Assembly (NCBI RefSeq): GCF_056746865.1
Contig: NZ_CM163382.1
Reading direction: 5' to 3' (one strand)
Length of the DNA stretch: 64,000 bases
The translations under genes and the position numbers were made by a program. How positions within the stretch are numbered: the first letter of the stretch is position 1; each line of letters opens with the position of its first letter. The notes beneath the pieces were generated by a model. The model had not been told where the DNA came from. It made no database searches and saw only the letters and a list, made by a program, of their open reading frames with translations. Shown piece after piece: positions 23,879 to 58,926 of the stretch.

Positions 23879-26112
<2,234 letters not shown>

Positions 26113-26169
26113 AGGAAATACATCGCGTTAAAACGGAGGAAGCGCCGCCCGAAAGCGGCGCGAAAGGAC

Positions 26170-27459
26170 TTAGCTGAACAGAGAGTAGAAGATTGCGGAG
26201 ATTGCAATCAGACCCATCACGACAACGAATACGTTGCTGATGTGACCGCTGTACTTACGCATTGCCGGTACTTTCTGAATTGCGTACATCGGCATCAGGA
26301 ACAGGATCATCGCGATGATTGGGCCGCCCAGGGTTTCAATCATACCCAGGATGCTCGGGTTCAGGGTGGCAACAATCCAGGTCGTTACCAGCATGAACAG
26401 CGCAGTGATACGGTTCAGCTTGTTGATTTCGATAGACTTACCTTTACCACGCAGAGATTTAATCACCATACCGTTGAAGCCTTCACGTGCGCCCAGGTAG
26501 TGGCCGAGGAAGGATTTGGTGATAGCGATAATCGCGATAATCGGAGCCATCCACGCGATAACCGGTGCGTTAAAGTGGTTAGCCAGGTAAGACAGAATCG
26601 AGATGTTCTGCTCTTTAGCCGCAGCCAGGTCTGCCGGAGTCAGGCTCAGTACGCAGCTGAATACGAAGAACATTACGGTCAGCACCATCATGATGTGTGC
26701 GAATGCCAGGATCTTCGAGCATTTCTGTTCTGCCATATCGCCGTACTCTTCACGCTTCGCAACAGCGAAAGAAGAGATGATCGGAGAGTGGTTGAACGAG
26801 AACACCATTACTGGAATTGCCAGCCACAGGGTCATCCACAGACCGTTTCCGGTTGCCGATGCAGTGTCCAGAGACAGCGTTTCCAGTGCTGCGCCGTTCC
26901 ACTGCGGGATCAGGTACAGAGCCAGCAGCATCAGTACGCCAACAAACGGGAATACCAGAATACTCATCGCTTTAACGATCATCTGCTCACCGAAGCGAAC
27001 GATGGTCATCATACCCACGATCAGGATCAGCGACAGAATCGCACGCGGCGGTGGTGTCATACCCAGCTGGTGAGACATGAAGCTTTCAACTGTATTGGTG
27101 ATTGCCACGCTATAAACCAGCAGGATCGGGTAGATAGCGAAGAAGTAGAGCAGGGTAATCAGTTTACCTGCGCCAATACCAAAGTGTTCTTCTACAACCT
27201 CGGTGATGTCTTCGCCTGGGTTTTTACCAGACAGTACGAAGCGAGTCAGGCCGCGGTGAGCAAAAAATGTCATCGGGAACGCAAGGATAGCCATGATGAT
27301 CAGCGGGATCATACCGCCAACACCGGCGTTGATTGGCAGGAACAGCACGCCCGCGCCGATTGCCGTGCCGTAAAGGCCCAGCATCCACATGGTGTCTGTC
27401 TTGCGCCAGGCACTACGAGAGTCTTTCGACGCAATCGTGCTGGTTTGAGTCGTTTCCAT
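26170..27459 (-). CDS. sdaC: Serine:H+ symporter (HAAAP family)
   Basis: 429-aa polytopic membrane ORF. Confidence 0.95.
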
Positions 27460-28015
27460 CTATTTCTCCTGGAGGAATGCAAATAATTCAGCTTTTAGCC
27501 AGTTCAGCCCGGGAAGGTGCCTGACCGTAAAAATGAAATCTGTCTATCGGCGATGGCTTAATCATTTACCGCCGTAATAATTTGAGGGCGGAAAGATACA
27601 CACAAGTTATGTATCTATCAGTGATCTTGATCCCAAATACAATAATCTACTTGGAAGATAGATTATCCCAACGCTTTACTCTGTAAATCAAAAGTAAAAG
27701 AGAATTTAAGGGCAATATTTGCCCATTAAACGACATCTGACTTCTTCCGGGGCGCGCAATATATGTAGGTTGAACTGAAAAAATCAATACTTTTAGTTAA
27801 TCATGGCGATAATTTCTTTTTCATAGCGATAAAATGTGGTTTATGAAAATAGGGAAACGTTTGCGTTGCAATATAAATTGTATGACATATTAACTGTGAT
27901 GATATTTGTTGCGTGAGGGTGGTAAGAAACATTCATATAACAAATGAAATGAGTTGATGAGTAAGTGACCAAAAACGAGAAAACCCGGCAACAAACGTCA
28001 CCGGGGGAGGGGAGA

Positions 28016-29380
28016 TTACGTGCAGATTTCGTAGCAAGGGATGTAGGCTGAGCCTGGCAACTTCATACGATGCTGGGCAACAAAACCCTGTAGCAGGTCA
28101 TCCATACGACGCATAATCTCTTTATCGCCGTTGATTTTATAAGGACCAAACTCTTCAATGGCGCGAATACCGACTTCTTTTACGTTACCCGCCACAATAC
28201 CGGAGAACGCACGGCGCAGGTCGGCAGCCAGCACTTCAACGGGTTGATCCGGGTAAAGCTTCAGATTAGCCATATTCTCGTGAGACGGCTCAAACGGCAT
28301 TTGCAAATCTGGCGCAATGCGCATTGACCAGTTAAAGCTGTAGGCATCGCCTGTGTCGCGGCGATTTTCTTTCACCAGCGGCATCGATTTTTTCATCTGA
28401 CGAGCGACTTCAGCGGCGTCATCAATGATGATGCGGTAATGGCGGCGCGCGTTTTCACCCAACGTATGCACGACAAACTCGTCCAGTACGCGGAAGTAGT
28501 CGGCGCTCTCTTTCGGGCCGGTGAGGATCAATGGTAAAACCTGATCTTTGTTGGCCGGGTTCATTAAAATTCCCAGCAAATACAGCAACTCTTCTGCCGT
28601 ACCCACACCGCCAGGGAAGATAATGATACCGTGAGCGATACGGACAAACGCTTCCAGACGTTTTTCGATATCCGGCATGATGATCAATTCGTTGACCAGC
28701 GGGTTAGGCGGTTCAGCGGCGATAATCGACGGCTCTGTCATACCAATAAAACGACTGTCTTTGTAACGCTGCTGTGCGTGTCCGACCGCAGCGCCTTTCA
28801 TCGGCGCTTCCATCGCTCCCGGACCACAGCCGGTGCAGATATTCAGCTCACGCAGGCCCAGCTGATTCCCTACGCGACGGGCATACAAATACTCGTTTTC
28901 GTTAATTGAGTGCCCGCCCCAGCAGACCACCATATTTGGCGCTTCACCAACATGCAGCGCGCGAGCGTTACGCAAGATGGAAAAGACCAGGTTAGTGATG
29001 TGGACGGAGTTGTCGAGATTCAGGTTGGGAAAACGAACGGTGTTATGGATTTGCCCGTAAACGAAGAGAATGTCACGCAGAACCGCGAACAAGTTGGCCT
29101 GCAAAGCGCGAATAATTCGCCCATCGACAAAAGCCTCTTCCGGGGGATTAATCAGTTCCAGCTTTACGCCGCGTTCACGGCGCAGGACGTTAATATCGAA
29201 ATTTTCAAAACGAGACAGCAATTCTTTGCTGTTATCGGTCAAACTACCGGAGTTCAGTACGGCAAGTGAACAGTTGCGAAACAGTTGATAGAGGTCGCTG
29301 CTGGCGGTGCGTTTAAGCATATCCACTTCCAGCTGCGACAACATATCCATGGAGCCAAGCGGGCTAATATGTGTAATCAA
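28016..29380 (-). CDS. ppnN: Nucleotide 5'-monophosphate nucleosidase PpnN (LOG family; formerly YgdH)
   Basis: 454-aa ORF with LOG-type PGGxGTxEE motif ([10 protein letters not shown]). Confidence 0.9.
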
Positions 29381-29491: not shown

Positions 29492-30340
29492 TTATTGCCG
29501 AACCAGTCTTGTGGTCGATGGGACAAAATCGCTATTACTGCGCCACGGGTTAATGTCCAGACCGCCACGACGGGTATAACGTGCGTAAACGCTCAATTTC
29601 TCTGGCTGGCAGAAGCGTAACAGGTCATTAAAGATGCGTTCCACGCACTGTTCGTGGAACTCGTTGTGATGACGGAAAGAAACCAGGTAACGCAGCAGTT
29701 TTTCTCTGTCAATTTGGCGTCCACGATACTGAATTTGGATCGATCCCCAATCTGGTTGATGGGTGATCAGGCAATTTGATTTCAGCAGGTGGCTGACGAG
29801 CGTCTCTTCTACTACTTTTTCTCCACTGGTGGCATTCTCCAGATAGTCAGTAGTGAATTCATAGTTATCGATAGTGATATCCTGGTCATCAATGCAAGTG
29901 CCATTGAAATGACCTATCGGTTGGCCTTCCAGTTCATCAAGACGATATAACGCCACGCTAACCTTACCCTGAGCGCAAGTGCTTAAGTCGCGCTCCAGCG
30001 TCTGGCGCACCTCATCCCAGTTATTAAAACGCGTCTGGTTAAAACTGTTGAGATAGAGCTTAAAACTCTTCGACTCAATCAGATTTGCGCTGGTGTAATC
30101 AAGTTCAACATGACCGACGGCGACCTGCGGCAAACCTTTCGCATTCAGCCAGGAAAGTTCATATAGCGTCCAGATATCCGTACCGTGAAAAGGCAGGTTA
30201 TCCGCTTTCAGACCCAGCGGATCGCGATTCAGACTACGCGGAACGCCTTGCAGTAGGCTGGCGTCATAGGTATCCCGGTAATCGGTTGATTTTCCAAGAG
30301 TCAGGCCCGCAAGTACCTGATGGTTTGCATAAGAAGACAT
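29492..30340 (-). CDS. queF: NADPH-dependent 7-cyano-7-deazaguanine (preQ0) reductase
   Basis: 282-aa ORF, two-domain QueF type. Confidence 0.9.
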
Positions 30341-30953: not shown

Positions 30954-30972
30954 TCCAAATACCCCATTTGGT

Positions 30973-30990
30973 TGTGAGAGATCTCTTACA
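30973..30990. promoter_or_regulatory. UvrY (BarA/UvrY two-component) binding box upstream of csrB
   Basis: Perfect 18-bp palindrome TGTGAGAGATCTCTTACA about 175 bp upstream of the csrB 5' end. Confidence 0.6.
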
Positions 30991-31163
30991 GACTCTGTAG
31001 GAGATCGCCAGGAAATAAGCGAATACTTAAAAAGATAAGAATCGTTATTTTCATTTAAAATCAATATATTGCTTGTTAATCCTTAACTTTCATATGAAAT
31101 TTTCCTTAAGGCATTGTCTGTAAGCGCCTTGTAAGACTTCGCGAAAAAGACGATTCTATCTTC

Positions 31164-31530
31164 GTCGACAGGGAGTCAGACAACGAAGTGAACATCAGGA
31201 TGATGACACTTCTGAAGGACACACCAGGATGGTGTTTCAGGGAAAGGCTTCTGGATGAAGCGAAGAGGATGACGCAGGACGCGTTAAAGGACACCTCCAG
31301 GATGGAGAATGAGAACCGGTCAGGATGATTCGGTGGGTCAGGAAGGCCAGGGACACTTCAGGATGAAGTATCACATCGGGGTGGTGTGAGCAGGAAGCAA
31401 TAGTTCAGGATGAACGATTGGCCGCAAGGCCAGAGGAAAAGTTGTCAAGGATGAGCAGGGAGCAACAAAAGTAGCTGGAATGCTGCGAAACGAACCGGGA
31501 GCACTGTGAATACAGTGCTCCCTTTTTTTA
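31164..31530 (+). ncRNA. csrB: CsrB sRNA (CsrA-sequestering RNA)
   Basis: Begins GTCGACAGGGAGTCAGACAACGAAGTGAACATCAGGATGATG; many CAGGAUG/AGGA-type CsrA-binding motifs throughout; ends with a rho-independent terminator. Confidence 0.9.
31497..31529 (+). terminator. csrB rho-independent terminator
   Basis: gggagcactg-tgaata-cagtgctccc hairpin followed by TTTTTTT. Confidence 0.85.
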
Positions 31531-31574
31531 TTCCTGCTATTCTTCGCGGCAGTTTTTCTTATTGAGGTTGCTTT

Positions 31575-31904
31575 ATGACCACTCATGACCGCGTTCGTCT
31601 CCAGTTGCAGGCGCTTGAAGCGTTACTGCGTGAACATCAGCACTGGCGAAACGATGAACCCCAGCCGCATCAATTTAATAGTACCCAACCGTTCTTTATG
31701 GACACCATGGAACCACTGGAGTGGTTGCAGTGGGTGCTGATCCCGCGAATGCACGATTTGTTAGAAAACAACCAGCCGTTACCGGGCGCTTTTGCCGTTG
31801 CTCCCTATTATGAAATGGCGCTGGCGACGGACCACCCGCAACGCGCGCTTATTCTGGCTGAGCTGGAAAAACTGGATGCTCTTTTTGCGGATGATGCGAG
31901 CTAA
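31575..31904 (+). CDS. yqcC: DUF446 family protein
   Basis: 109-aa ORF; stop overlaps the truC start. Confidence 0.85.
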   Translation: MTTHDRVRLQLQALEALLREHQHWRNDEPQPHQFNSTQPFFMDTMEPLEWLQWVLIPRMHDLLENNQPLPGAFAVAPYYEMALATDHPQRALILAELEKLDALFADDAS

Positions 31905-58608: not shown

Positions 58609-58926
58609 ATCGTATTCCCATTTGTAATAGACAAAAAAAAGAGAAAAGTAAGCCGCCCTTTCAGGTGGATTACTTTTCTCAGGTCTCTAGTAATTGCAAT
58701 AAGAAATAACATGGAAAGCAGTGGTGTTGTGTGAGAGTAATCACGCTTCTGCTTTTTAAAATTATTTGACAATTCGAATATAACACTGTGATTACGATCA
58801 CATTAGCGATTATGCCCTTATGATAAAAATTATCTCCAGTTACCAGAGATAATGAGAAAGGTAACTTCCCTCTCGCGGGGGAAGTTACCTTTCTTTTTTT
58901 TTGCCTTACGGAAATTGGAGCTAACT

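Follow-up and report, generated by a model that had tools for sequence, protein, structure and literature searches.

The present study analyzes the interval between ppnN (ygdH) and sdaC in a 64-kb window, by which we mean the whole stretch of DNA examined, 64,000 nucleotides long, 100% identical to E. coli chromosomes and collinear with MG1655. Four genes on the minus strand frame the interval in the list of open reading frames: queF (29492-30340), ppnN (28016-29380), the serine transporter gene sdaC (26170-27459), and sdaB (24745-26112). From the same list and the MG1655 annotation, the gap between ppnN and sdaC occupies positions 27460-28015 and is exactly 556 bp long; its MG1655 counterpart lies between the end of ppnN at 2927672 and the start of sdaC at 2928229, with zero features between them (coordinates were converted as window x = 27459 + (2928229 - MG1655 position)). 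An earlier note on this DNA had described an unusually large, AT-rich region of about 555 bp upstream of sdaC, and this description holds in each part. GC content was 0.378 compared with 0.508 for the whole window and fell to 0.335-0.34 in 200-nt windows of the gap core, the gap was among the five largest between long open reading frames in the window (median 61 bp), and it is upstream of sdaC because sdaC is on the minus strand. The gap was present in 5425 of 5426 complete E. coli genomes, with the annotation under it given as "none" throughout those 5425, and a long ppnN-sdaC spacer of 436-648 bp was kept in 76 other Enterobacteriaceae genomes. Coverage fell below 80% of the gap in five of the 5425 genomes. 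In the E. coli sequence NZ_CP195448.1 the best match spanned only 61% of the gap (query 220-556), so that the sdaC-proximal part, window 27460-27678, is missing there; this genome and those with low coverage may have indels just upstream of sdaC. Two observations concern the neighborhood of the gap. A plus-strand open frame of 613 codons (25645-27486) runs antisense to sdaC and sdaB and is almost certainly a mechanical reading frame opposite real genes and not a gene. A further large gap follows syd at approximately 30954-31903 and, by collinearity with MG1655, should hold the csrB small RNA gene.

Features within the gap are described on the minus strand, the strand of sdaC, unless otherwise stated. 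The first after ppnN is the ppnN intrinsic terminator (27976-28005), located by terminator scan and Term-seq. Its hairpin CCCGGTGACGTTTGTTGCCGGG at 28005-27984 has nine pairs, six of them GC, and is followed by the U-tract TTTTCTCGTT, and the 3′ end published from Term-seq, MG1655 2927709 or window 27979, falls at this terminator (PMC7815308, supplementary table); the GC-rich hairpin, U-tract, and mapped 3′ end of an intrinsic terminator are thus all present. No other 3′ ends were listed on either strand between MG1655 2927700 and 2928299 in the accessible portions of the Term-seq tables of that paper. The ppnN 3′ end (MG1655 2927710) recurs, scored 2.2 (p 8e-10), in the second of the supplementary tables of PMC7815308. 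We take this second table to be the bicyclomycin (Rho) read-through table and, if it is, some read-through from ppnN toward sdaC would be stopped by Rho.

Two YieP sites reported in PMC8282354 were located past the terminator: site 1, ATTTGTTATATGAAT, at 27931-27945 (sequence from the Methods of that paper) and site 2, ATATGTCATACAATT, at 27876-27890. Site 1 was conserved within Escherichia and not in other genera, and site 2 was invariant across four Escherichia species. Published experiments document both binding and effect, in that an occupancy peak over the sdaC promoter was seen in rich medium, YieP was pulled down and the two sites were defined, site 2 sits under the IPOD-HR occupancy peak and a ChIP-exo peak, and expression of a lacZ reporter was lowered by scrambling both sites or by deleting yieP (PMC8282354).

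Directly beside YieP site 2 is a palindrome, ACGCAAACGTTTCCCT (27851-27866), that resembles the operator of PurR. It has two mismatches to the PUR consensus ACGCAAACGTTTTCNT and is the sole match within three mismatches in the 64-kb window, while ten known MG1655 PUR boxes have one to five mismatches to the same consensus. A matrix was built from those ten boxes (purC, purM, guaB, glyA, glnB, purL, cvpA-purF, purH, purE, and purR); with it the palindrome scored 19.5 bits, compared with leave-one-out scores of 12.8-21.3 for the ten real boxes, and the next-best site outside the training set in 195 kb scored 12.4 bits. A PUR match within four mismatches was found in 43 of 77 genomes, compared with 50 of 1540 shuffled controls, and in most genera the PUR-like sites lie approximately 386-410 nt upstream of the sdaC ATG. 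At the level of sequence, then, the element has the palindrome match and the orthologous conservation expected of a PUR box.

Farther toward sdaC, a promoter scan and published up-mutations point to a distal sigma-70 promoter at 27751-27787. The predicted elements are a -35 hexamer TTGATT (27787-27782), an 18-nt spacer, a -10 hexamer TATATT (27763-27758), and a GC-rich discriminator, with the start predicted near 27751-27746 and a leader of approximately 290 nt. This promoter was invariant within Escherichia. In a cya mutant, recurrent insertions have been reported of +A at MG1655 2927924 and +ATT at 2927928 (PMC8546631, Table S1), and such alleles raise sdaC expression and permit growth on serine (PMC10882989). 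They convert to window 27764 and 27760, respectively, and so both fall in the distal -10 box; the +ATT insertion turns that box into TATAAT. Since these mutations were selected without cAMP, they are of little help in telling which promoter is important in the wild type, and what they produce may be a new promoter, not a better version of a native one. The repeat search also returned a direct repeat, TTATCGCYATGA, in two copies with 20-bp spacing (27801-27832), some 50-80 bp ahead of the distal start; its second copy is divergent in other Escherichia species, and the repeat is possibly due to chance. Scores from a sigma-70 matrix (best 8.7 in the gap, compared with a median best of 8.1 after shuffling) were set aside as evidence on promoters in either direction, since AT-rich sequence scored as well after shuffling. 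That matrix flagged TTGATT-18-GATAAT at 27691-27662, which is poorly conserved. A third promoter with a -10 of TATATT at 27875-27870 is unlikely, with a low score and a spacer that YieP site 2 would cover. The consensus scan returned no plus-strand promoters in the gap, and matrix scores for that strand were at background level.

To place these features in an evolutionary context, SdaC was used to scan one genome per species, which yielded 80 loci from approximately 30 enterobacterial genera, with ppnN as the upstream neighbor in 76 of the 80, and conservation was expressed as mean identity to the E. coli base in an alignment of 77 sequences. Mean identity was 0.23 over the terminator and YieP region (28015-27867), 0.66 over the PUR-like box (27866-27851), 0.49 over the distal promoter (27787-27751), and 0.44 over the first 100 nt past it (27750-27651). 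It then rose to 0.80 between the CRP site and the predicted proximal start (27650-27586), where TGTATCTTTCCGCC at 27600-27587 reached 0.94 and was the most conserved stretch of the gap, fell to 0.50 over the proximal leader (27585-27480), and was 0.77 in the Shine-Dalgarno region (27479-27460); the flanking coding ends, for comparison, had identities of 0.82-0.84. The conservation profiling that the earlier note had proposed therefore singles out one block, 27650-27586, in a gap most of whose remainder is at 0.23-0.50. Outside Escherichia a different motif, RTGNTAGCCTTCGCGCC, was strongly conserved approximately 245-269 nt upstream of sdaC (e.g. L009:2236-2268, among loci L005-L081).

The conserved block contains a CRP binding region (27604-27635), located by pattern match in the window and by a published ChIP-seq table. 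The main site, of the TGTGA-N6-TCACA type, is TGGGATCAAGATCACT at 27635-27620, with a weaker adjacent match, TGATAGATACATAACT, at 27619-27604. CRP occupancy has been found in ETEC H10407, for which the ChIP-seq table gives AGTGATCTTGATCTCA and AGTTATGTATCTATCA at sdaC (PMC4287617); these correspond, apart from one base, to plus-strand window positions 27620-27635 and 27604-27619. Expression of sdaC is known to respond to cAMP and CRP (PMC10882989 among other sources). Elsewhere in the window, a perfect CRP consensus, TGTGATTACGATCACA, occurs at 58787-58802 and is the sequence of the ygcW/yqcE CRP ChIP-seq site in ETEC (PMC4287617). The CRP 16-mer TGnGATCnnGATCACT was found in 76 of 77 genomes across approximately 30 genera, and in the same number of genomes a hexamer was positioned exactly 32 bp from the CRP site, center to center, with zero indels (TATCTT in 68, TACATT in five, and TATCGT in three). 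In E. coli this hexamer, TATCTT, is at 27598-27593 and is followed by a GC-rich discriminator. From the conserved spacing, a proximal promoter core was predicted at 27586-27598, with a start near 27586 (+/-2), 7 nt past the hexamer, which would center CRP at approximately -41.5; the leader from this predicted start would be approximately 127 nt in E. coli and 105-132 nt across genera. The block therefore joins a site occupied by CRP in ETEC to a -10 hexamer in the -41.5 geometry of class II promoters, and we read it, from its sequence, as an ancestral class II CRP-dependent sdaC promoter, a reading that explains the known catabolite control. Class I arrangements with CRP at -61.5 or -71.5 were also considered (-10 candidates TATTAC, TAAATG, and AATGAT), and were rejected because those hexamers are poor and unconserved, in comparison with the near-invariant TATCTT at the class II distance. 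A repeat search showed in addition an inverted repeat over the -10 hexamer (27591-27619; arms 27619-27610 and 27600-27591), which folds at -9.9 kcal/mol compared with -2.9 kcal/mol after shuffling (z -3.5). In most other genera the form is GATRCATT-N9-AATGTATC, its register shifted 4 nt relative to E. coli, and z was below -1.5 in 35 of 58 distinct orthologous sequences. Covariation cannot be scored because the right arm is invariant, and the repeat may act as an operator, serve as the weak second CRP site, or form a hairpin in RNA made from the distal promoter.

The sdaC 5′ leader from the predicted proximal start (27460-27585) ends in a Shine-Dalgarno sequence, GGAG at 27469-27466, with a conserved CCUCC upstream. 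The ArcZ small RNA pairs with sdaC mRNA at -13 to -2 (PMC11331407, citing Papenfort 2009), a stretch that is window 27472-27461 and covers the Shine-Dalgarno sequence, and ArcZ has been shown to lower sdaC mRNA in E. coli. The sequence UCCUCCAGGAGA at 27463-27478 was near-invariant across genera and overlaps the ArcZ pairing site. Lrp ChIP enrichment is on record at sdaC and ygdH, and the Lrp site in EcoCyc is approximately 200 bp downstream of the YieP peak (PMC8282354). RNA structure in the leader was less distinct. The fold of the 311-nt leader differed weakly from shuffled sequence (z -2.15), and RNAalifold on 43 diverse leaders (27600-27448) gave no consensus fold, with three CC/GG pairs and zero compensatory changes. 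The only pairs it predicted were those of the anti-Shine-Dalgarno CCUCC, which directly adjoins GGAG. A GC hairpin, CCGCC/GGCGG at 27591-27569, had stems in many genera in shifted registers, and so cannot be scored as one helix.

Patterns detected are consistent with the gap being, in all probability, the cis-regulatory region of sdaCB, the operon for serine uptake and deamination, with two promoters and no separate gene. The suggestion in the earlier note that it holds the sdaCB promoter and regulator sites agrees with the published YieP, up-mutation, CRP, ArcZ, and Lrp data as mapped here and with the cross-genus conservation. Reading toward sdaC, the ppnN terminator comes first, followed by an Escherichia-specific module of two YieP sites, directly after these a widely conserved operator of PurR type, and then the distal sigma-70 promoter with its -10 of TATATT, which small insertions can strengthen to give cAMP-independent sdaC expression. 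Approximately 165 bp past the distal promoter would be the ancestral class II promoter, comprising the CRP site and TATCTT at 32 bp. We infer a division of labor in which the distal promoter, served by YieP, would be active in rich medium with glucose, a condition in which sdaC expression is high despite inactive CRP, and the conserved proximal promoter would depend on CRP; the YieP sites, approximately 290-340 bp upstream of the predicted proximal start, make sense only with the distal promoter in use. Lrp binds at some point in the AT-rich stretch that separates the two promoters. Leaders of approximately 127 nt (proximal) or 290 nt (distal) would both end in the ribosome-binding site, at which ArcZ pairs and represses translation.

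An alternative explanation could be that the distal promoter acts alone from a start near 27750, the 290 nt downstream being simply a leader in which the conserved block serves as RNA structure (hairpins at 27619-27591 and 27591-27569) or as a downstream CRP site. The only promoter mutations selected experimentally do sit in the distal -10 box, but selection took place in a cya mutant, in which a promoter that needs CRP is silent and any near-promoter of AT-rich sequence can be recruited. The placement of the YieP sites suits the distal promoter, although that promoter is only moderately conserved outside Escherichia. For an RNA element there is the leader folding somewhat better than shuffled sequence, and the inverted repeat at 27619-27591 being more stable than its shuffles in E. 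coli and in the 35 orthologous sequences noted above, with E. coli keeping a hairpin in a shifted register; against it, RNAalifold found no consensus fold in 27600-27448 and no Rfam family was matched. A CRP site at approximately +120 would be in an unusual position for an activator. The fixed 32-bp spacing between CRP site and hexamer, with no indel across approximately 30 genera, is what a promoter needs and a leader element need not keep. A single distal promoter is on this evidence unlikely, and the two-promoter reading is preferred.

The earlier note had left room for a small RNA or small protein in the gap while seeing no convincing open reading frame; the latter judgment stands and the former finds no support. 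Reading frames in the gap reach at most 46 codons in the list, with small frames of 25-46 codons on both strands. One of 29 codons, MSFNGQILPLNSLLLLIYRVKRWDNLSSK (27647-27736), follows the purine-rich GGAAGAAG, would lie close to where the distal transcript begins, and encloses a hairpin, GGGCAAATATTGCCC, at 27724-27710, but it has a stop at codon 3 in one Escherichia locus (L004) and unrelated sequence in other genera, and it was judged not to be a gene. A 25-codon sense frame from 27565 has non-synonymous changes within Escherichia and lies in a stretch poorly conserved across genera, and the antisense frame over the conserved block, tested as a 34-codon frame, is interrupted by stops in other genera, where 16-113 codons are open. 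A conserved small-protein frame with a ribosome-binding site was thus not found among the 29-codon, 25-codon, and antisense frames. In other genera, at an equivalent place, RTGNTAGCCTTCGCGCC opens a frame of 10 codons (e.g. MVAFAPVNSL) in 29 of 43 genomes with the motif, but this frame is without a Shine-Dalgarno sequence, and its codons 3-6 are near-invariant at all three positions, which is nucleotide-level constraint; E. coli is without the 10-codon frame and has the hairpin GGGCAAATATTGCCC at that place instead. A permissive Rfam search of the gap reached no threshold, with best E-values above 4 and inside sdaC, and no family attained its gathering score in eight orthologous loci. As for a small RNA gene with its own promoter and a terminator or 3′ end, the sole terminator and the sole Term-seq 3′ end, in the accessible portions of the published tables, are those of ppnN. 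The curated MG1655 record has zero small proteins or small RNAs in the gap, although it includes ypfM, iroK, shoB, and small RNAs elsewhere. Together with the empty annotation in the 5425 genomes, these results make it highly improbable that the gap also encodes an independent product, whether a small protein from 27736 or 27565 or a small RNA.

Within the two-promoter reading, the part played by the PUR-like box is less certain. It is a tentative possibility that the conserved box at 27866-27851 is a working PurR operator. If so, sdaCB would join the purine regulon as a so far unrecognized member and, with glyA and gcvTHP, would couple serine supply to purine status; there could be interplay between the PurR operator and the adjacent YieP site, and PurR would account for part of the "orphan" peak of occupancy in rich medium that was assigned to YieP. 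Expression of sdaC is highest in purine-containing rich medium (PMC8282354), which makes simple repression by PurR doubtful. The lysate used for the sdaC pull-down in the YieP study had first been probed with purR promoter DNA (PMC8282354), and one may speculate that this could have depleted PurR from the lysate. No link between PurR and sdaC was found in accessible papers, including those that mention both, and the ChIP-chip paper on the PurR regulon has no mention of sdaC in its text, judging by that paper's absence from a literature search for sdaC and PurR. Searchable papers contained no earlier report of ACGCAAACGTTTCCCT as a PUR-like box.

The gap is thus an ordinary, largely known, and partly studied sdaCB control region, to which a class II reading of the proximal promoter and the PUR box add a little. 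The E. coli K-12 sdaCB promoter region was reportedly described by Shao, Lin and Newman in 1994. A 2024 paper stated that no sdaC promoter had been verified experimentally (Frendorf et al. 2024, PMC10882989). The conserved core suggests a candidate class II CRP promoter approximately 127 nt upstream of sdaC, and recent papers center approximately 165 bp further upstream. A PUR-type operator on a par with those of purine genes suggests a link between purine availability and serine import or catabolism. As SdaC bears on lysis when glucose runs out, on serine toxicity, and on the industrial production of serine, mapping its promoter correctly is of some practical use; beyond such housekeeping the significance is small, this being the control region of a well-known operon on which several groups already work.

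Comparison with known systems begins with the same region in K-12. The "sdaC promoter" of the Freddolino laboratory's IPOD-HR study (PMC8282354), MG1655 2927672-2928228, is the same DNA as the gap within one base, and control by CRP, Lrp, and YieP and the -10 up-mutations have already been described there (PMC8282354, PMC10882989). In those papers the core promoter is the distal one; the accessible parts of texts on the sdaCB promoter region contain no mention of the class II arrangement of CRP with TATCTT or of the PUR-like box. For ArcZ, the Salmonella stretch aligned at -13 to -2 is the same as that of E. coli, and ArcZ is encoded elsewhere, so that the gap is a pairing target and not a small RNA gene.

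Likeness to two families of regulatory site is closer and in each case incomplete. The proximal promoter resembles class II CRP promoters in its weak or absent -35 and in a recognizable -10 placed 32 bp from the center of the CRP site. In class II promoters such as galP1 and melR, the CRP site is centered at approximately -41.5 and overlaps the -35 region. Unlike the class II norm, the sdaC proximal start is a predicted one, and the -10 matches consensus at four of six positions without a proper extended -10 TG. In E. coli a pyrimidine occupies position +1 as predicted, which, like the four-of-six match, weighs against this promoter. A peculiarity of the sdaC promoter is that a second weak CRP-like site and the inverted repeat overlap the spacer and the -10. 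The PUR-like box, for its part, differs from real PurR operators in overlapping no recognized promoter, since the distal start is approximately 108 bp and the proximal start approximately 272 bp downstream of it. It shares with the operators of glyA and purR the 16-bp palindrome, the GCAAACGTTTGC core, and a score inside the range of real operators, and the glyA operator itself, ACGCAAACGATTACCT, is identical to the site upstream of sdaC in many Enterobacter and Citrobacter genomes.
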